Assembly (NCBI GenBank): GCA_963666625.1
Contig: OY762925.1
Span: forward strand, 2,373,792-2,437,791
Direction: 5' to 3'
DNA length: 64,000 nt
From: Arenicellales bacterium
Lineage (GTDB): Bacteria; Pseudomonadota; Gammaproteobacteria; Arenicellales; JAJDZL01
Below the pieces are notes generated by a model. That model was not told the DNA's origin. It worked only from the letters and a program-made list of their open reading frames with translations, and did no database searches. Position numbers and translations under genes: made by a program. Below are positions 6,592 through 14,739 of the stretch, piece by piece; positions within the stretch are counted from its first letter, which is position 1, and each line of letters starts with the position of its first letter.

Positions 6592-6899
6592 GATTCCTTT
6601 TTTGCAGTTGGCAATCCAATAAAAGCTGTGATACTTTCGGGCGAAATGACAAATTCACGAGAATTATAGAAAACAGTCGGATTATATTGTTGGATTTGAT
6701 TGTATGAACTTAAACATCACCGAATTATGTCAAAAAATTCGGCAAATTTGATGACAAAATTAGTTAGTACTAATAGAAAGTTCCTTGGGAAGATATAGAA
6801 ATCTTCTATAGTTGGATGAATTCCGAGGTTCGTGGAAGCCTGACGTTATTCGGATATTCAAGGTGTCGCAACTTTCCAATTTCACATTCGCGGCAGCGG

Positions 6900-8732
6900 C
6901 TACTCGTTTGGCTCAATACGTATGACTCTCGGCAACGGTTCTCCACTATTAATCAACTTTTCCTGCTCATTCAGATCTCTTTGGAAATTTACTGTATTTG
7001 AATAGAGATATGTCCAGCAGGAAAACTTGTCGGATGTTGTCAAGTGATTTCGTGCCTTCGCCACCTTCAAGTATTCAATAGCTCTATCCATTTCACCCAA
7101 AATATAGAAAACCAGACTCAAGCATTGAGAATAGTTAGCATTACTTTTGTACTCTACGGTGAAGTAGTCTTTATGAGTAATCACTCGTCGAAAATCTTCT
7201 GTATTTGGCGTTTGGTTTGCTCCCCATTTCGCCATGGCGAAATTGAATAATATAGCCTGGCTGGAACTACCTTTTTCGATTTCATCTTCAACTAATCGGA
7301 TTGCATCATCGAATTGACCTTGCCCAATAAGGTTTAGTACCAGCGTATTGACATCTTCAATATCTGCATCTTCTCCAACTTTATCTAGGGCAGCCCGAAC
7401 CAATTGTTCCGCATGTTTTAGAGAGTTCTTTTCTCGACCAAAATCTTTTGCCAGTTGCAGCAAATTTTGGAACTCCAATTCTATAACGCTTGGCCACGAC
7501 GCTACTTTATCGATAGTGTCCTGAGAATTTGATCCCAACAAGCCAAGAACTTGTTGGATGTCGTTGTAGGAGAGACCGCTAAGATTGGAGGCTTTTCTGG
7601 CGTAATACTCAGCATCTTCATCCATCCCTAGACGACTAGCAACTAGTGCTTTTCGAGCCAGTATTTTTGAACTGTCAGGTGCGATATCAATTAACTGGTT
7701 CGATATTAGGTCAGCCGCTTCATAAAATCCAAGTCGAATGTAAATTTGTACAATTTTCGAGAGAATATTGACATTTTTGTCGTGGTGGGAAAGGATTTGA
7801 TCGATCCGTGATTCCATCAAGTCGAAGCGAAGCATTTCATCTTCATAGTCCAATTCAAAATCCAACATATCTAGTTCGATTTGACGCAAATACATCATTG
7901 CTCCTTTCTCATCTTGAAAATTCTCCTTTTGAATCAATTTGGTGAGCTTCCTGTATTCAGAGGCAAGACGACTTTTTGGTCGAGTCAAAACAAACAGCTC
8001 TTGATTCAACAGAGGTAGACTTGGGTAGTGATGAATCGTTTCCATCGAATTCATATTTGCAATTTCTCGACGAAAGCTCTTCATATTCTTCCATAAGATG
8101 CTGTGTTCGTCATCAATGTCAGGAACATTCGAGGCGGCGAAGTGCAAAGTAATATTTTTCGGCTCTTCTTTAATTTTCTGGACGATTGTTGCCAACCCCC
8201 TAAGATTCTGCTTGTTTGGGAAATACAAAACTACGACAGCATCCGGCAGTTGACGTGTACAAATACCACCAACATCAGTATGCCCCGTGCGCGAGTCAAT
8301 CAATACATAGTCGGGGTTCAAATGACTTTCCCACTGCGCTTTGAGATTAGCTAACAGTAAATACCCATCTCTGTGATCATATAAATTTCTCCATGAAATT
8401 GAATTCAATCGGCCGTGGTACTCAGCATCACGGTAACCCGCCGGCATCACCCACAATTCACCCGGATATTTTTCGGAGAATTTTGCTTGATATAGGAATT
8501 CATCGATTTCGGGTACAACATCGTTATCCAGATAGTGTTTAACGTAGTCAACAATTCCGTTTTTCTTACGTCTCGTTAGATTCAATTGAAAAGTATCTAA
8601 TCCTGGCGCTTCGAGATCGAAGTCCACAGTAAGAACTTTCTTGCCTTCTTTGACCAAGGCGGCAGCACAATTCATTAGTGCCAGTGTTCGCCCAACACCG
8701 CCCTTAAAAGAGTAGAACGTTACGATGTACAT
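6900..8732 (-). CDS. ParA/MinD-superfamily P-loop ATPase with variant KGGVGR Walker A, fused to C-terminal TPR-like helical repeats
   Basis: 610 aa. N-terminus MYIVTFYSFKGGVGRTLALMN... (Walker A) and ...DYVLIDSRTGHTD (Walker B-like). C-terminal ~350 aa contain TPR-like units (e.g. IRLGFYEAADLISNQLIDIAPD, ILGEMDRAIEYLKVAKA). SD GAGGGGA lies 7 nt before the ATG, 12 nt after the mqsA-like stop. Confidence 0.75.
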   Translation of the reverse strand: MYIVTFYSFKGGVGRTLALMNCAAALVKEGKKVLTVDFDLEAPGLDTFQLNLTRRKKNGIVDYVKHYLDNDVVPEIDEFLYQAKFSEKYPGELWVMPAGYRDAEYHGRLNSISWRNLYDHRDGYLLLANLKAQWESHLNPDYVLIDSRTGHTDVGGICTRQLPDAVVVLYFPNKQNLRGLATIVQKIKEEPKNITLHFAASNVPDIDDEHSILWKNMKSFRREIANMNSMETIHHYPSLPLLNQELFVLTRPKSRLASEYRKLTKLIQKENFQDEKGAMMYLRQIELDMLDFELDYEDEMLRFDLMESRIDQILSHHDKNVNILSKIVQIYIRLGFYEAADLISNQLIDIAPDSSKILARKALVASRLGMDEDAEYYARKASNLSGLSYNDIQQVLGLLGSNSQDTIDKVASWPSVIELEFQNLLQLAKDFGREKNSLKHAEQLVRAALDKVGEDADIEDVNTLVLNLIGQGQFDDAIRLVEDEIEKGSSSQAILFNFAMAKWGANQTPNTEDFRRVITHKDYFTVEYKSNANYSQCLSLVFYILGEMDRAIEYLKVAKARNHLTTSDKFSCWTYLYSNTVNFQRDLNEQEKLINSGEPLPRVIRIEPNE

Positions 8733-8744
8733 ATCGAGGTCCCC

Positions 8745-9284
8745 TCAAAGAGCGAACGCGTTGGCCTGATTCATCAGACTCAAATCATGCTCATCCAAGC
8801 ATACAAATTTTTCGGAAAACAACCGAACAAAATTCGACGACTGTTGATCTCTCGACAGCAATGCTTCCAGAGAGCTGTCCGCTGACCCAAGTAAGAAAAT
8901 GAAATTGTCCAATGCGTTGCTCTGAATTCGCTTTCCTTGTTCCCAACTATTGATGGAAGCTATTGCAATTCCAGTCAAGTCTGCGAATTGCGCCTGTGTC
9001 AAATTGAGTTTTTGGCGAATATCTCGGATTTCAGACGGAGTCATGACTCCCAAATACCTGCACACAGCTTCATGACACTTCATGTGGGCTTCCGAAGTTG
9101 TAAATTCGAATCCACAGTCGCGACATTCGTGAACTGGGATAGTAGCACAGAGTATGGGGGCAGATTCGCCCGAACCATGTCTGAAACTCTTCTCTTCAAA
9201 TCTAGTGTTAACACGGTCTGAACCGCACAGTGGGCATGTCAAATTCATAGGTTCCACTTTGGAATTGTTATTTCTACCATTCAT
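8745..9284 (-). CDS. MqsA-like antitoxin (zinc ribbon + XRE-type HTH) with C-terminal extension
   Basis: CPLCG...HECRDCGFEF zinc-ribbon pair followed by the HTH IRQKLNLTQAQFADLTGIAIASINSWEQGKR, the same layout as E. coli MqsA as I recall it. ATG at 9284 is preceded by AGGTGGAG. The ORF track starts at a GTG at 9293, and an ATG at 9248 is also possible. Confidence 0.75.
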   Translation of the reverse strand: MNGRNNNSKVEPMNLTCPLCGSDRVNTRFEEKSFRHGSGESAPILCATIPVHECRDCGFEFTTSEAHMKCHEAVCRYLGVMTPSEIRDIRQKLNLTQAQFADLTGIAIASINSWEQGKRIQSNALDNFIFLLGSADSSLEALLSRDQQSSNFVRLFSEKFVCLDEHDLSLMNQANAFAL

Positions 9285-9300
9285 AATCTCCACCTACATT

Positions 9301-9657
9301 TCAATCAACTTCGTAATGAAAACTCAAACCAGTCAGCCAATCTGATCCTAATTGAAGCTTGATATAGATACCCTGACCTGTACGATCAGGATCTACTATG
9401 AGTTCATAGGCAACGCCTTTGTTAATATTCCGCATCTTAACTTTTTGAAGTTCGTGTCCGTCCGAAAGCAAGTTTTCTATAAATGTCCAACAGGTTGATT
9501 CGGTAAATGGACTATTTGGTCGGTCGGAATCCATAATGTCTGTCACCGAATTCGGATTCCACTTGCTTGAATAAGATGTGGCGACTTGTCCTTGTTCTAT
9601 CATCTGCAACATTTTCGTTCTGACTTTCGGATAGTTATTGCTATTGGTAACCAACAC
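9301..9657 (-). CDS. MqsR-like toxin (putative mRNA interferase)
   Basis: 118 aa. By-eye match to MqsR: YPKVRTKMLQMIEQGQV vs HTRLSQVKKLVNAGQV, and GQGIYIKLQL...GLSFHYE vs GQVYLKITV...IVSFKEK. Toxin-first order upstream of the MqsA-like gene. GTG/TTG start preceded by AGAGGGG. Confidence 0.55.
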   Translation of the reverse strand: MLVTNSNNYPKVRTKMLQMIEQGQVATSYSSKWNPNSVTDIMDSDRPNSPFTESTCWTFIENLLSDGHELQKVKMRNINKGVAYELIVDPDRTGQGIYIKLQLGSDWLTGLSFHYEVD

Positions 9658-9689
9658 AACCCCTCTATTCTTAAAGTTATCTAGAAGAA

Positions 9690-9755
9690 ATTATAATATT
9701 ATATTATTTATTTGCATTATATTGATATTGATAATAAAATTATTATAATATTATA
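9690..9755. promoter_or_regulatory. Putative operator/promoter: two identical 12-bp perfect palindromes TATAATATTATA (9692-9703, 9744-9755), centres 52 bp apart
   Basis: Directly read: the 14-nt direct repeat ATTATAATATTATA at 9690-9703 and 9742-9755 has a self-complementary core. Each core contains TATAAT on both strands. Lies 35-98 nt upstream of the mqsR-like start in an extremely AT-rich spacer. Confidence 0.5.
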
Positions 9756-10406
9756 CATTATCCATGGAGAGTCTTCAAAGAAATTTAGACAGTCCGATTT
9801 TGATTTTCACCTCATCGATCAAAGTGCTGTCCCTCAACGTTTTTTCGCGAACCCAAAGTTCTCAATCTTCTAAATTTTCTCGGAGATGGCACTAAGGCTT
9901 ACTACAACCTTCTCCTTTAAAAGAATGAGGAAATTGAAGTATTCTTCGGAGAATCCTTTCAATGGACGGGGTCGTCTGATCGAAAACTATCGAAAATTGC
10001 GTTGTTCAACAACAAATGCGATTCCGGAGATAGAACCAAATGGGTTCAGTCAACATCAATGGTTATTGAGACAATTGATAATATTTTCCGAAGCAGAGTA
10101 GAAAAACTAAACGATGGAGATTGGAAATTTGAAGATGAATCAACAGTTTGAACTTATACTAGTTGATTATGGACCAACATTAAAATTGAAACTGATAACG
10201 GTTGGACTTTGGTCATTCCGTCACCAATTCGTTTCATCAGATAAAGAACTCAAAGCCATGCAATTGCTAGTCAAGCGACTAGCAATTATTTGGGTATTCG
10301 GGGTAAGTTAGATATTCACCAGTGAACACTTGAGCAAAATGTAATGAATTTCCTCACAGTCTGTAGCAATGGCCCAACCTGCTTTCATTTTTGAGTCGAA
10401 TGTGAA

Positions 10407-11273
10407 ATGATATCCAGTATGACCGGATTCGCGAAGCGAATCGTCGAGACAGAGTGGGGGGTTGTTCAGTGGGAGGCACGCTCACTCAATCATCGCGGCT
10501 TGGATCTGTCATTCCGAATGCCGGAGAAATTTGCTTCATTGGAAGCGGACTGTCGAAGAATGCTCGCGACCAGGCTCAATCGCGGCAGAATTGAAATCAC
10601 ACTGAGATTCGATGACTCAGGCGCAATTTCTGATCTGCAGGAAGTGGACACCAACGCGTTGGACAACGTACTAAAGCATGTGGATTCGATCCAGGAACTG
10701 GCCCCTGACTCAATATCCATGTCGATCCGTGATCTTCTGAAATGGCCGGGAGTTCTCAAATCAACCGAGGTGGACAAATCTGAACTCGACGTAATCGTTC
10801 TGGACGCGTTTGACAATTTGTTGATGGAACTGGAAGATGATCGATTGCGGGAGGGTGGTGAGATTGAAACACTGCTATTTGAGAAGATCGGCGAATTGGA
10901 AATCTACGCGTATAAGTTGGATGAAATGATCGAAGCGGCTGAGGAAGCGGAGCGTGACCGATTGGCGAGAAGGTTGAAGGAGTTCGAATTCGACGTTGAC
11001 CCAGATCGGGTGGCTCAAGAAATTGCCATTGCTGTAATGAAAAGTGATGTTAGCGAAGAAATCGAGCGCTTTCGCTTGCATGCCCTTGAGTTGGAGCGCG
11101 TATTGAGTGAAGAAGATATTGCTGGCAAAAGATTGGGATTTTTACTCCAGGAACTTGGCAGGGAAGCCAATACGATCTCCTCGAAGTCAGCATATTATCC
11201 GCTCAGTACGATTATTATCGATATGAAAGTTGTGCTGGAGCAGATCCGCGAACAGATTCAGAATATTGCGTAG
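10407..11273 (+). CDS. yicC: YicC/YloC-family stress-induced protein (endoribonuclease family)
   Basis: 288 aa. Hallmark N-terminus MISSMTGFA and C-terminal ...GRLGFLLQELGREANTISSKS... motif. Conserved position upstream of gmk. Confidence 0.85.
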   Translation: MISSMTGFAKRIVETEWGVVQWEARSLNHRGLDLSFRMPEKFASLEADCRRMLATRLNRGRIEITLRFDDSGAISDLQEVDTNALDNVLKHVDSIQELAPDSISMSIRDLLKWPGVLKSTEVDKSELDVIVLDAFDNLLMELEDDRLREGGEIETLLFEKIGELEIYAYKLDEMIEAAEEAERDRLARRLKEFEFDVDPDRVAQEIAIAVMKSDVSEEIERFRLHALELERVLSEEDIAGKRLGFLLQELGREANTISSKSAYYPLSTIIIDMKVVLEQIREQIQNIA

Positions 11274-11278
11274 TTCGG

Positions 11279-11920
11279 ATGTCAGAAACTGAATCCGTTC
11301 TTTTGGTGATCTCCGCCGCATCGGGTGCCGGAAAATCCAGCCTTGCCCAAGCCCTGGTCCAAAATTCCGAACGGATTGTCCTGTCGGTGTCGCACACCAC
11401 ACGCGAAATCAGCGAGAATGAGGTTGATGGGCGTGAATATCACTTTGTGACTGAACAGGAGTTCAAGCGCATGATTAAGGCAGGTGAGTTCCTGGAGTAT
11501 GCAAAGGTATATGACAACTACTACGGTACATCTCGCGAAACAGTCATGCGGGAATTGAAATCAGGTAATAGTGTCATTCTGGAGATTGACTGGCAAGGTG
11601 CAAAGCAGGTGGAGACCAGGTTTCCGTCGGTGATCAAGGTTTTCGTACTGCCACCTTCCATTGAGGCACTTAAAGAACGTCTGATGGGTCGGGGACGTGA
11701 TTCCGACACTACCGTCGAAAGGCGCCTGGCGGCCGCGATGGACGACATGCAGCACTGCGTAGATTACGACTATCTGGTGCTGAACGATGACTTCGACGAG
11801 GCTCTCTCGAATATTCGGAATCTGTTGCCCGGAGGGTCCGGAATCGTACGTCCGATCCCGGCAAATCTGAAGGAGAAATTCAATATTGCTTTCGACGGCA
11901 CACAGCACGGTGTTGAATGA
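11279..11920 (+). CDS. gmk: Guanylate kinase
   Basis: 213 aa. P-loop ISAASGAGKSSL, SVSHTTR, and YHFV..EEF...G.FLEYA..YDNYYGT motifs of guanylate kinase. Confidence 0.95.
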   Translation: MSETESVLLVISAASGAGKSSLAQALVQNSERIVLSVSHTTREISENEVDGREYHFVTEQEFKRMIKAGEFLEYAKVYDNYYGTSRETVMRELKSGNSVILEIDWQGAKQVETRFPSVIKVFVLPPSIEALKERLMGRGRDSDTTVERRLAAAMDDMQHCVDYDYLVLNDDFDEALSNIRNLLPGGSGIVRPIPANLKEKFNIAFDGTQHGVE

Positions 11921-14739
11921 TGCGATTGTCATGGAATGAGATTCGCGTTCGAGCGGCCAGTTTCGCTGAAAAGTGGAAGGATGCTGAGTATGAGAAGGGT
12001 GAGACACAGAGTTTCTACAACGAGTTTTTCAAAGTTTTTGATGTTGAGCGAAGAACTGTAGCACGATACGAGCATCATGTCTCCAAGCTCAACAACCAGT
12101 CGGGATTTATAGACTTGTTTTGGCCTGGCATGCTGATTGTCGAGCAGAAGAGCGCAGGTCGAAATCTTGAGAAAGCGTACGAGCAAGCGGGAGAGTATTT
12201 TGATGCACTTCCAGAGCGTGAACGTCCACAATATATTCTCGTCAGCGATTTACAGACTTTCGACCTCTACGATTTGGATGAGCGAGAGAGAGTTTCCTTT
12301 TCTCTTGAAAAATTACATCAGCATGTCGAATCGTTTGGTTTCATAGTTGGTGTACAGCGGCGAAAATTTCGAGATCAGGATCCGGCAAATATCAAGGCTG
12401 CGGAATTGGTCGGAAGGTTGCATGATTTGCTCCACGAAGCAGGTTACACCGGGCATGATTTGGAAACATTTCTCGTTCGCATTGTGTTTTGTCTTTTTGC
12501 CGATGACACTGGAATCTTTGAGCCGCGAGATATCTTTCTTGAACTCGTGGAAACACGTACAAATAAAGATGGTTCTGACTTGGGATCTTGGCTGTCGCAA
12601 CTATTTCAGGTTCTGAACACGATTGAGCACGAACGGCAGTTGACGCTTGATGAGGACCTTGCAAGATTTCCCTATGTCAATGGAAAATTATTTGAAGAGC
12701 CACTGCGCATACCGGCCTTCGATTCGTCCATGCGAAGAGCGTTGTTGGAAGCGTGTTATTTCGATTGGTCGGAAATATCCCCTGCTATATTCGGTGCGTT
12801 ATTTCAGTCTGTCATGGATCCGGTGGAACGTCGTGCCCATGGAGCTCATTACACGACAGAGAAAAACATTCTGAAGGTTATTGAACCTTTGTTTCTGGAT
12901 GAACTGCGAGCAGAATTTGAACGTTTGAAGTCCCGCAAAGATTCTCGTCGCATTGTTGATATTCGCCGATTTCACAACAAACTTAGAACTTTGAGCTTTT
13001 TCGACCCTGCTTGTGGCTGCGGCAATTTTTTGATTATTGCGTATAGGGAACTGCGATTGCTTGAAATTGACATCCTGAAAGAAATTCACCCTAAATTGCA
13101 GGGTCAGATACAGCTTGATATCGATGCCACATCATTGTCAAAAATCGATGTTGATCAATTTTATGGAATTGAAATCGGCGAGTTTCCAGTGCGAATTGCG
13201 GAGACAGCATTATGGATGATGGATCACATCATGAACAACAGACTGAGTCTAGAGATCGGTCAAACCTATACGAGAATTCCGTTAAAGGCATCACCAATTA
13301 TCGTGCACGGTGATGCATTGAAAATAGATTGGGAAACCATTCTTTCGCCAGAAAAATGCTCATATCTGTTTGGAAATCCGCCATTTGTCGGTGCAAAATT
13401 GCAAACACCTGATCAACGTATTCAGGTGCGCAGAATAGCGGCACTCGGCAAGAGCGGTGGCACGCTTGATTATGTCTCAGCGTGGTTCATCAAAGCAGGA
13501 GAGTATGTGAAAGTTGGTCACGCTCGAATCGGTTTCGTTGCCACCAACTCGATTACACAAGGCGAGCAGGTTGCACAGCTATGGCCGGTTTTGTTCGAAC
13601 GTTGTAAGTTGGAGATTTCGTTCGCGCACCGTACGTTCGTATGGGGTTCGGATGCGCGTGGAAAAGCACACGTGCATGTCATTATTATTGGACTTGCACG
13701 ACGGAATTCGATCCAGCCAATCAAGCGTCTGTTCAGTTATCCCGACATCAACGGGGAACCGGAGGAGACCGAGCATATCGTTCTATCACCTTATTTGTTT
13801 GATGCCAGCAAACTTACTGATTCTCAATTGGTGGTGCAGGAAGAAAGCGCACCGATCAATGGTATGCAAAGACTGATTATCGGCTCGAAACCAATTGACG
13901 GCGGCAACTACATATTCAACGCAAAACAACGCGCTAAATTGCTGGAAAAAGAGCCTGATGCCGAGCAATTTCTCCACCCGTATGTTGGCGCTCGTGAATT
14001 CCTGCAGGGTAGTGAGCGCTGGATTCTTGCTCTTCATAATGCTCCGCCCAATGTCCTAGGACGATTGCCGCGAGTTCGAGCACGAGTAAGTGCAGTCCGC
14101 ACGTACCGTGAGGTCAGCAAGAGTATCCAGACGCGGAAACTTGCTGAAACCCCGACACTGTACCATGTAAACGTTATCCCGACTGTACCATATTTGGTTA
14201 TTCCTGAAGTTAGTTCGGAACGGCGCGAGTACGCGCCCATCGGCTGGTTAGAACCGCCAGCGATTCCTAGCAACAAGCTCCGACTTCTAGAAAATGCAAA
14301 TCTATCCGATTTCGCTTTGCTGACTTCTGCCATGCACATGGCATGGACGCGCTATATCGGTGGGCGTTTGAAAAGTGATTATTCGTATTCAGTCGGTATC
14401 AACTACAACACGTTCCCATTGCCCCCAAATGCTGATCGATCCAGACTTGAACCATATGCGCAGGCGATTCTCGATGCGAGAAACAACCATCCCGATGCAA
14501 TTCTAGCTGACCTGTATGACCCTGATCTGATGCCGCCTGGCTTGCGAAAGGTACATCAAACCCTGGACAAGGCTGTCGATCAGCTTTATCGTCGTTCAGG
14601 ATTCTCCTCGGAGCGCGAACGAATTGAACACTTGTTCCTGCTTTACGAACAAATGCGAATGCCTTTGAAATTATCAACAGACCAAAATTCGAAACGAAAA
14701 CAGGGAAGAGCCCGTCGTGTTATCAAAAAGGCATCATAA
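11917..14739 (+). CDS. MmeI-family Type IIL restriction-modification enzyme (fused nuclease / N6-adenine methyltransferase / specificity domain)
   Basis: 940 aa. N-terminal D...EXK nuclease motif (GFIDLFWPGMLIVEQKS), SAM motif I FFDPACGCGNFLI, catalytic motif IV FGNPPFVGAK. Length and domain order match MmeI-type enzymes. The ATG overlaps the gmk TGA (ATGA). Confidence 0.85.
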   Translation: MMRLSWNEIRVRAASFAEKWKDAEYEKGETQSFYNEFFKVFDVERRTVARYEHHVSKLNNQSGFIDLFWPGMLIVEQKSAGRNLEKAYEQAGEYFDALPERERPQYILVSDLQTFDLYDLDERERVSFSLEKLHQHVESFGFIVGVQRRKFRDQDPANIKAAELVGRLHDLLHEAGYTGHDLETFLVRIVFCLFADDTGIFEPRDIFLELVETRTNKDGSDLGSWLSQLFQVLNTIEHERQLTLDEDLARFPYVNGKLFEEPLRIPAFDSSMRRALLEACYFDWSEISPAIFGALFQSVMDPVERRAHGAHYTTEKNILKVIEPLFLDELRAEFERLKSRKDSRRIVDIRRFHNKLRTLSFFDPACGCGNFLIIAYRELRLLEIDILKEIHPKLQGQIQLDIDATSLSKIDVDQFYGIEIGEFPVRIAETALWMMDHIMNNRLSLEIGQTYTRIPLKASPIIVHGDALKIDWETILSPEKCSYLFGNPPFVGAKLQTPDQRIQVRRIAALGKSGGTLDYVSAWFIKAGEYVKVGHARIGFVATNSITQGEQVAQLWPVLFERCKLEISFAHRTFVWGSDARGKAHVHVIIIGLARRNSIQPIKRLFSYPDINGEPEETEHIVLSPYLFDASKLTDSQLVVQEESAPINGMQRLIIGSKPIDGGNYIFNAKQRAKLLEKEPDAEQFLHPYVGAREFLQGSERWILALHNAPPNVLGRLPRVRARVSAVRTYREVSKSIQTRKLAETPTLYHVNVIPTVPYLVIPEVSSERREYAPIGWLEPPAIPSNKLRLLENANLSDFALLTSAMHMAWTRYIGGRLKSDYSYSVGINYNTFPLPPNADRSRLEPYAQAILDARNNHPDAILADLYDPDLMPPGLRKVHQTLDKAVDQLYRRSGFSSERERIEHLFLLYEQMRMPLKLSTDQNSKRKQGRARRVIKKAS

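Follow-up and report, generated by a model that had tools for sequence, protein, structure and literature searches.

A conserved three-gene cassette combining a new small-protein family, an MqsA-family protein and a KGGVGR-variant ParA/MinD-like NTPase: an apparently undescribed toxin–antitoxin-like system

Is a gene for a large nucleotide-binding repeat protein, standing a few nucleotides downstream of what looks like an mqsRA toxin–antitoxin (TA) pair, a working part of the same system or an accidental neighbour? This question is raised by three genes in a stretch of 64,000 nucleotides (hereafter, the window) from an Arenicellales bacterium of the class Gammaproteobacteria (assembly GCA_963666625.1, contig OY762925.1, positions 2,373,792 to 2,437,791). 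The first-pass annotation, made from the letters of the sequence, read these genes as an mqsR-like toxin gene, an mqsA-like antitoxin gene and a gene for a ParA-type ATPase with tetratricopeptide repeats (TPR), and took them for a tripartite module that is not a described system. To our knowledge, the three-component TA systems reported so far have as their extra part either a SecB-like chaperone, or a regulator encoded separately, or one half of a split toxin. Here it would be a nucleotide switch, a nucleoside triphosphatase (NTPase) of the ParA/MinD class joined to a repeat domain that binds peptides. The open reading frames (ORFs) in question are the following, the first position of the operon being called slot 1.

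9301..9657, minus strand: ORF1, 118 amino acids (aa), or 117 aa with the NCBI start, which lies one codon later; slot-1 gene, putative toxin
8745..9293, minus strand: ORF2, 182 aa, with an alternative ATG start at 9284; candidate MqsA-family antitoxin and transcriptional repressor
6900..8732, minus strand: ORF3, 610 aa; KGGVGR-variant ParA/MinD-like NTPase fused to a TPR superhelix

All three are co-directional and separated by gaps of 7 nucleotides (nt), or 16 nt with the ORF2 start at 9284, and 12 nt. Purine-rich Shine–Dalgarno sequences, read directly from the sequence, precede each of them: AGAGGGG before 9657, AGGTGGAG before 9284 and GAGGGGA before 8732, the last one overlapping the stop codon of ORF2. 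The coordinates, gaps and motifs listed at first reading were all found again.

That the three genes belong together follows from their neighbourhoods in other genomes. An alignment-based scan of 185,579 species genomes, one genome per species, gave at least 591 confirmed loci, and the best 80 of them were analysed; 79 of the best 80 have a recognisable ATPase gene and form the base of the neighbourhood counts. In 75 of these 79, the ATPase gene is immediately preceded on its own strand by an MqsA-like ORF, and three of the four exceptions are frameshifted copies or copies interrupted by an insertion sequence (IS), with the MqsA-like gene still close by. Slot 1 is occupied by an ORF of the ORF1 family in 53 loci and by another small ORF (about 110–130 aa) in 19. 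The groups represented are Acidobacteriota, Planctomycetota, Alpha-, Beta- and Gammaproteobacteria, Thermodesulfobacteriota, Gemmatimonadota, Spirochaetota, Verrucomicrobiota and Bacillota, among others, and identities to the window (32–44%) are alike in phyla that are far apart.

The reverse look-up gave the same picture: all four of the ORF1-family proteins selected on long contigs (six places) are followed by an MqsA-like gene and by the ATPase gene. In a mirror-tree comparison of the distances of ORF1, ORF2, the ATPase domain and the TPR domain over 51 loci, correlations of r = 0.75–0.86 were obtained, which none of 500 permutations reached; the ATPase domain is the most conserved part, with a mean distance of 0.43 against 0.58–0.71 for the others. 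The three genes are one conserved, co-evolving unit, present in hundreds of species of many phyla. Since conservation, the reverse test and co-evolution agree, the third gene does not stand beside a TA pair by accident, and the module is truly tripartite, as the first-pass annotation had proposed.

The product of the middle gene consists of three parts.

9069..9236, minus strand: N-terminal zinc ribbon of ORF2, aa 20–75, with CPLC at 20–23 (C20/C23) and CRDC at 57–60 (C57/C60)
8862..9038, minus strand: XRE-type helix-turn-helix (HTH) domain of ORF2, aa 86–144, matching HTH_3, HTH_31 and HTH_19
8748..8861, minus strand: C-terminal extension of ORF2, aa 145–182, a variable linker followed by a conserved tail

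ORF2 passes both MqsA models, TIGR03830 with 71.7 bits (cut-off 61.8) and PF15731 with 34.3 bits (cut-off 30) over residues 19–135. It scores 35.5 bits against the HTH_3 model (PF01381), and HigA2 and the P22 C2 repressor are among its matches in the Protein Data Bank (PDB). The zinc-ribbon cysteines are kept across 79 family members, and the ribbon corresponds to the MqsA-N domain, the toxin-binding part of MqsA (PMC2791442). Judged by these matches, ORF2 is an MqsA-family protein with a predicted zinc ribbon and HTH domain, so that its MqsA layout and the toxin-first gene order, with the slot-1 gene ahead of it, were recognised correctly from the start. The extension of about 40 residues at the C-terminus of the triad antitoxins is without a counterpart in the MqsA of E. 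coli (131 aa). In the window, its tail reads ...KFVCL...AFAL; the family alignment gives the consensus RF[RQ]xL-(~12 aa)-FxLR.

The third protein was described at first reading as a ParA/MinD-type P-loop protein (FKGGVGRT; VLIDSRTG) continuing into TPR-like repeats and standing where a SecB-like chaperone might be expected, and in this respect the structural model, the Foldseek search and the profile hidden Markov models (HMMs) agree with it.

7923..8732, minus strand: NTPase domain of ORF3, aa 1–270, with Walker A FKGGVGRT, Switch I VDFDLEAPG (D37, D39) and Walker B VLIDSRTG (D146)
6945..7910, minus strand: C-terminal all-helical TPR-like domain of ORF3, aa 275–596, with helical repeats in the model

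Residues 2–187 of ORF3 match the NCBIfam family NF047398, 'KGGVGR-motif variant AAA ATPase', with 177.9 bits (cut-off 90) over positions 3–189 of the 190 of the model; AAA_31 and CbiA are matched as well, and no match to SecB was found in Pfam or NCBIfam. The full-length family comprises more than 6,000 proteins. The AlphaFold2 (AF2) model, built from a 62-sequence alignment with a mean predicted local distance difference test (pLDDT) value of 89, shows a ParA/Soj/MinD fold followed by a TPR superhelix. In the Foldseek search, the NTPase domain was matched with template modelling (TM) scores of 0.75 to ParA (3ea0), 0.70 to Soj (8jml) and 0.71 to MinD (4v03), and NifH and BcsQ were listed as well, all with a probability of 1.00; Soj 6iub and MinD 4v02 are further matches, and the target-normalised range for ParA/Soj/MinD was 0.67–0.75. 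The TPR part gave Foldseek matches to consensus TPR and OGT TPR structures and weak matches to the Pfam TPR models; its conserved polar and aromatic positions are N497, W503, N533, Q536 and W573.

When ORF3 is aligned with MinD residue by residue, KGGVGKT becomes KGGVGRT: the signature lysine, Lys10, is kept and the P-loop lysine is replaced by Arg15. The protein thus fails the deviant Walker A pattern xKGGxxK[ST], which contains both lysines. Arg15 is nearly invariant in the family, and Lys10, Asp37/Asp39 and Asp146 are invariant or nearly so. As modelled, ORF3 is a SIMIBI-class relative of ParA and MinD and not a STAND protein, because its fold matches ParA/Soj/MinD and its KGGVGRT aligns with the KGGVGKT of MinD. 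The identification of ORF3 as a STAND NTPase was rejected: nSTAND_NTPase5 gave 12.4 bits (cut-off 34), and all structural neighbours were SIMIBI proteins. The likeness to STAND/Avs sensors seen by the first-pass annotation is therefore kept as an architectural analogy, the generic layout of an NTPase followed by repeats, and dropped as a statement about the NTPase itself.

The P-loop Lys-to-Arg mutants K122R of P1 ParA and K120R of F SopA bind ATP but hydrolyse it poorly, and because of this precedent the natural KGGVGR protein may, by analogy, be a slow switch with a long-lived ATP-bound state.

The same variant ParA-like domain was also observed in other architectures. It is fused to TIR in a protein of 734 aa on the Sinorhizobium chiapasense plasmid pSchITTGS70c (L097, 3989-6193), adjoining another TIR protein, and to NACHT in a protein of 1,096 aa on IMG/VR contigs (L087, 4998-8288); in a protein of 769 aa, likewise from IMG/VR contigs (L086, 4632-6941), the ATPase domain follows an N-terminal extension of about 120 aa. 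No MqsA-like or ORF1-like neighbours were found at these three loci.

ORF1 had been taken for MqsR by eye at both ends, and for this there is no sequence or profile support: no match at E ≤ 1 was obtained in Pfam, NCBIfam or PADLOC, phmmer against the PDB was also negative, the ORF1-family profile found nothing in the PDB (3HI2 included), none of 66 family members matched MqsR_toxin (Pfam PF15723), and hhalign with E. coli MqsR aligned 14 columns, the YIK/YLK strand, at 1% probability. The identity of ORF1 with MqsR was rejected on these grounds, and since all HMM and profile tests fail, the protein is not filed as MqsR. What remains of the claim is a weak resemblance in fold and C-terminal motif.

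A word-seeded homologue search returned ORF1 itself and nothing else, and an exhaustive phmmer search was needed to obtain the family. It gave 104 cluster representatives, and the profile built from them collected 1,809 proteins of 110–135 aa; none of these contains a Pfam domain, and all named members are labelled 'hypothetical protein'. The C-terminal motif of the family is YIKLQLG..GRSFHYS. Residues K100, S112, F113 and H114 are invariant, and W33, P35, F51, W57, Y98 and G110 are nearly so. By its sequence, ORF1 is the founding member of a new, unannotated family and not a demonstrable MqsR.

The AF2 model of ORF1 is confident (pLDDT 90, predicted TM-score 0.84). Foldseek placed MqsR (3hi2_B) at the top by probability (0.87) and by TM-score (0.47/0.55), with an E-value of 0.15, and listed RelK, YoeB, HP0894 and RelE likewise; no match reached E < 1e-3, and a comparison with viral structures gave nothing informative. 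By motif, not by superposition, Y98-I-K100 of ORF1 corresponds to Y81-L-K83 of MqsR, and S112-F113-H114 to S94-F95-K96. The toxicity of MqsR depends on K56, Q68, Y81 and K96, and H83 has a role in YoeB (PMC2791442). The sequence RSFHY near the end of ORF1 recalls the catalytic C-terminus CRYHY of YoeB, whose sequence was checked. A fold of the RelE/MqsR superfamily is plausible for the ORF1 family on the strength of the model.

A comparison of variant loci suggests how the parts may be connected. In the main class, an ORF1-family protein in slot 1 goes together with a TPR domain of the window type and an antitoxin tail of the FxLR type. In the Planctomycetota class, slot 1 contains an unrelated protein, and the TPR type and the tail are retained. 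In the Verrucomicrobiota class, different slot-1 proteins are combined with a divergent TPR-like C-terminal domain (at most 32 bits to the window-type model) and the tail FPxL...NPAR. The type of the antitoxin tail thus co-varies with the type of the ATPase C-terminal domain and not with the type of slot 1. Such a pattern, in which the tail follows the ATPase while slot 1 is exchanged independently, fits a contact between tail and TPR domain and a swappable effector in slot 1; we infer both from the sequences of three classes of loci.

The slot-1 family of four Planctomycetota loci (L013, L030, L044 and L047) has the invariant patterns GG.I, Y.H.D and Y.ET..D and a C-terminus like IYLETVLD...VVTVVSAKYK. 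Because the window-type TPR domain and the antitoxin tail are kept, the replacement looks like a toxin swap. In loci L064–L078, mostly from Verrucomicrobiota, the slot-1 proteins have 111–142 aa and many of them end in ...H.HNTG..PLP; the ATPases are shorter (551–615 aa where complete), and the last motif in the tails of the antitoxins is of the NPAR type. No significant link of the alternative slot-1 proteins of either group to Pfam, PADLOC, the PDB, MqsR or the ORF1 profile was found.

Further evidence comes from the region upstream of slot 1. In 38 of 56 loci, the 180 nt that precede the slot-1 gene contain the palindrome ATCAWWTGAT. Over the 56 loci, there are 47 sites in 10,080 bp of such upstream sequence, whereas the other 734,555 bp contain a single one, so that the enrichment is about 2,300-fold. 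The length of generic palindromes in this region is barely above that in shuffled sequences (5.96 against 5.32), and it is the count of the specific motif that is informative. A different palindrome, TATAATATTATA, takes its place in the window and in L001, the closest relative for which flanking sequence is available (51% identity in the ATPase); in L001, this 12-mer stands upstream of the homologous operon.

9744..9755: palindrome TATAATATTATA, candidate operator 1, overlapping the -10 box of the promoter-like site
9692..9703: palindrome TATAATATTATA, candidate operator 2, 35–46 nt upstream of the ORF1 start
9750..9778, minus strand: sigma-70-like promoter candidate, TTGAAG-17 nt-TATAAT, 10/12 consensus matches

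The promoter is a consensus match, and such matches are no commoner than in shuffled sequences. The palindromes are, to judge from their position and recurrence, a signature of an operon that is autoregulated by its own HTH protein, like those of type II TA systems.

Several observations concern the mobility of the cassette. In the window, it lies in a segment of low guanine–cytosine (GC) content.

6592..10406: low-GC segment from the Rieske gene to yicC, containing the cassette and an AT-rich spacer of 750 nt

The GC content is 0.38–0.43 over 6.5–10.5 kb and 0.48–0.52 in both flanks. The flanks are not conserved, with no gene family present in more than two of the 90 nearest neighbours, and housekeeping genes are mixed there with defence genes such as AriA, ZacA, a CBASS cyclase, Cas7, methyltransferases and JetC/JetD. 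Full triads were also found on plasmids, including a 23 kb Massilia plasmid and Rhizobium megaplasmids. The Massilia plasmid has, in addition, a canonical parA and a partitioning determinant of its own. In RefSeq and plasmid annotation, the second and third genes appear as separate items, 'MqsA family antitoxin' and 'ParA family protein'. A horizontally mobile cassette is proposed because of the low GC content, the unconserved flanks with some defence neighbours, the plasmid copies and a copy disrupted by IS elements.

In that disrupted copy (L053, 1707-7413), two tandem ISL3-family transposase genes (416 and 410 aa) stand between the MqsA-like and ATPase genes. On the Massilia plasmid (L095, 4045-4407) and a Rhizobium plasmid (L096, 4112-4471), the ORF1-family gene is present in the DNA, but the PLSDB gene table, by design an incomplete one, does not list it.

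Taking these data together, the cassette probably serves as a module of TA or of defence, and its third component is of a new kind. The mechanism that we propose for it can be put as follows. ORF1 would be a small endoribonuclease toxin similar to those of the RelE/MqsR superfamily, with an active site formed by Tyr98-x-Lys100 and Ser-Phe-His114 on the last two strands. ORF2 would neutralise it via the zinc-ribbon domain, and an ORF2 dimer would repress the operon at the palindromes overlapping the promoter. ORF3 is envisaged as a nucleotide-dependent dimerising switch, the TPR domain of which would hold the C-terminal tail of ORF2 in the way that a SecB-like chaperone holds the antitoxin extension in toxin–antitoxin–chaperone (TAC) systems. 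A trigger that breaks this hold would cause the antitoxin to fail and the toxin to be freed; it might be a shift of nucleotide state, or else a protein from a phage or plasmid that competes for the groove of the TPR domain. There is a precedent in HigBAC, where a lambda tail protein disrupts the contact between antitoxin and chaperone and thereby activates the toxin (PMC11980606).

In our opinion, the triad is best read as an autoregulated, horizontally mobile, three-component TA-like conflict cassette, and we give this reading a probability of about 0.5, the toxin, its neutralisation, the hold of the TPR domain on the tail and the trigger being inferred parts of it. The more detailed proposal is put forward tentatively: it would be a widespread, as yet unnamed immune or addiction system in which a ParA/MinD switch with a natural Lys-to-Arg P-loop and a TPR sensor guards an MqsA-type antitoxin by its tail and, upon a phage or plasmid trigger, releases an RNase toxin of RelE/MqsR fold and of a new family, with unrelated toxins swapped in in some lineages. 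The sensor-gated RNase toxin, abortive-infection-like, that the first-pass annotation suggested is likewise conjectural.

A number of points weigh against this reading. Neither Pfam, NCBIfam, PADLOC nor the PDB gives an HMM or profile that ties ORF1 to MqsR or any other toxin; the Foldseek E-values of its model are weak (0.15), and de novo NTF2-like folds rank above MqsR by E-value. Plausible counterparts in ORF1 exist for two of the four toxicity residues of MqsR, none being clear for K56 and Q68. The link between tail and TPR domain is drawn from co-variation across just three classes of loci, and the Lys-to-Arg change in the P-loop may make the NTPase of ORF3 catalytically inert. The defence genes in the flanks are a plain listing, and the immediate neighbours in the window are housekeeping genes. 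The triad is absent from 50,697 phage records, and four triads in all were found in 2.9 million viral contigs of IMG/VR; a phage origin of the cassette was rejected on these counts.

Three other explanations have to be weighed with it. The ATPase–TPR protein could itself be the effector, for example by an inactive MinD/ParA-like domain that disturbs division or partition on release, with ORF2 as its regulator and ORF1 as an adaptor, sensor or co-regulator. Kaur et al. (2020) termed related MinD/ParA-like domains, predicted to have no activity, 'inactive' and classed them as effector modules of vWA-MoxR conflict systems. Moreover, the same domain elsewhere takes the N-terminal place typical of effectors, ahead of NACHT or beside TIR, it is the most conserved part of the triad (0.43 against 0.58–0.71), and ORF1 has no toxin HMM match. 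It is slot 1, however, that is exchanged for unrelated small proteins, as is usual for effectors and toxins, and that precedes an MqsA-type antitoxin in the toxin-first order of mqsRA; the ORF1 family keeps a nearly invariant Tyr and invariant Lys, Ser and His on a sheet that, in the model, is similar to that of RelE, and the strict conservation of the nucleotide-binding Asp and the signature Lys in ORF3 suggests a working switch, not a decayed domain. We consider an effector ATPase unlikely. Less probable still is a module that has nothing to do with conflict, be it an operon with a regulatory or housekeeping function or a system of the partition type, where the HTH protein would serve as the DNA adaptor of the ParA-type ATPase on the palindromes. 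The ParA/MinD fold, the DNA-binding partner with its conserved upstream palindrome, the RefSeq name 'ParA family protein' and the many chromosomal copies among housekeeping genes would agree with it.

Such a module would hardly be expected to show the patchy distribution (at least 591 loci in 185,579 species genomes, the identity being much the same in phyla that are far apart), the position in a low-GC insert, flanks in which no family recurs in more than two of 90 neighbours, or one or two operator copies in place of a centromere-like array; besides, ORF2 passes the MqsA antitoxin model and the slot-1 gene is variable. The partition variant is further weakened because the Massilia plasmid carries its own parA and a separate partitioning determinant. 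Public annotation, which handles 'MqsA family antitoxin' and 'ParA family protein' separately, would be in line with an ordinary two-gene mqsRA pair lying by chance beside an unrelated ParA-family gene. This explanation is effectively refuted by the neighbourhood survey and retains a negligible probability, given the adjacency in 75 of 79 loci and in all four reverse look-ups, the co-evolution of the three proteins, junctions of at most 12 nt and an ORF1 that is not MqsR by any HMM.

The surroundings of the cassette in the window deserve a separate description. A Rieske protein gene lies on one side, and yicC, gmk and an MmeI-type gene on the other.

10407-11273: yicC, housekeeping gene between the cassette and the MmeI-type gene
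11279-11920: gmk, housekeeping gene for guanylate kinase
11917-14739, plus strand: MmeI-type (type IIG) restriction–modification gene, complete, with all five MmeI Pfam domains

The first-pass annotation had placed the operon in a low-GC insert near the MmeI-type gene. Both the GC dip and the distance of 2.26 kb are real, but the argument for a defence island is weak here, since the housekeeping genes yicC and gmk separate the MmeI-type gene from the cassette. The MmeI-type gene starts 4 nt ahead of the gmk stop codon and may therefore be co-transcribed with yicC and gmk. The spacer (9658-10406), which extends over 750 nt from the promoter region of the cassette to yicC, is AT-rich (GC about 0.38) and may be a leftover of the vehicle that delivered the cassette. 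Its small plus-strand ORFs at 9886-10101 and 10114-10311 have no Pfam match. As to the edges of an island in the window, neither a tRNA nor direct repeats in the flanks were found, nor was there a terminator behind ORF3.

Some flanks in other genomes are also of interest. In two loci from one ENA sample (L089 and L090), the triad stands directly downstream of Wadjet-like genes (SbcC-type JetC, JetD_C), and what distinguishes the two contigs is a further DDE transposase gene, inserted immediately behind the ATPase gene. On the Rhizobium phaseoli plasmid pRphaN831c (L096, 6908-11827), the triad is directly followed by an opposite-strand block coding for an SbcC-like AAA ATPase, a DNA repair exonuclease and a large DUF3320 protein; this three-gene block may be a further system of the defence type.

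No description of the triad was found in PADLOC v2, Pfam, NCBIfam and the searchable literature, in agreement with the opinion of the first-pass annotation that the system is not a described one. Apparently, and as far as sequences allow one to say, this is a real, widespread and undescribed three-component TA-like cassette, in which both the putative-toxin family and the class of the third component are new. It is common: at least 591 loci occur in genomes that represent species, and the homologues number more than 6,000 for the ATPase and about 1,800 for ORF1. Present annotation does not connect the three genes, the products of which are called 'hypothetical protein', 'MqsA family antitoxin' and 'ParA family protein'. 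In practice, a 'ParA family protein' beside an MqsA-like gene should not be taken as a partition gene. For further work, the cassette offers a small putative-toxin family with Y98, K100 and H114 as mutational targets, the candidate operator ATCAWWTGAT, a natural Lys-to-Arg P-loop the ATP turnover of which can be measured, and a testable interface between tail and TPR domain.

Compared with known systems, the cassette resembles MqsR/MqsA (ygiUT) of E. coli in having the toxin slot first, an antitoxin with a zinc ribbon of two CxxC pairs and an XRE HTH domain, and a candidate palindromic operator upstream. The slot-1 protein of about 100–120 aa, with its helix–strand N-terminus and C-terminal antiparallel sheet, is also similar to MqsR as far as the model goes, whereas it fails all sequence and profile tests and has SFH in place of SFK96 of MqsR. 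Unlike in MqsR/MqsA, the candidate operator is ATCAWWTGAT or TATAATATTATA and differs from that of E. coli, the antitoxin has about 40 aa of extra conserved tail, and the third gene is obligatory.

A three-gene TA operon, an antitoxin with a C-terminal extension and a dedicated third protein are shared with TAC systems such as HigBAC and MqsRAC. In contrast to the SecB-like chaperone of about 150 aa found there, the third protein here is a ParA/MinD-like NTPase of 610 aa with TPR, which implies dependence on nucleotides; in our proposal, it would bind the tail. With ParA, Soj and MinD, this protein shares the fold (TM 0.67–0.75), the signature lysine of the deviant Walker A motif, the DxD of Switch I and the Asp of Walker B. 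It differs from them in the change of the P-loop lysine to arginine (KGGVGR[ST], the feature that defines NF047398), in the fusion to about 330 aa of TPR and in its context, which is a mobile TA-like cassette without ParB, MinE or a centromere.

The variant ParA-like NTPase is known from PDC-M28 of PADLOC and from the vWA-MoxR domains of Kaur et al. (2020), and ORF3 matches PDC-M28B with 117.8 bits in the ATPase domain only. The PDC-M28B models, however, have 327–438 aa and show no TPR match, and no MqsA-like or ORF1-like component is described for PDC-M28 or the vWA-MoxR systems. PDC-M28A was not matched by ORF1, ORF2 or the proteins of the variant loci, and the cassette is accordingly not assigned to PDC-M28. 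Finally, the combination of an NTPase with C-terminal repeats, possibly sensing a ligand, and the fusion of the ParA-like domain to NACHT and TIR elsewhere recall the sensors of STAND, Avs and NLR-like type. Unlike them, ORF3 has an NTPase unrelated to STAND/AAA+ and no fused effector, the candidate effector being a separate small protein under the control of an antitoxin. Should the proposal be true, ATPases of the partition type would provide, besides the STAND NTPases, a second route to sensor-gated abortive infection.

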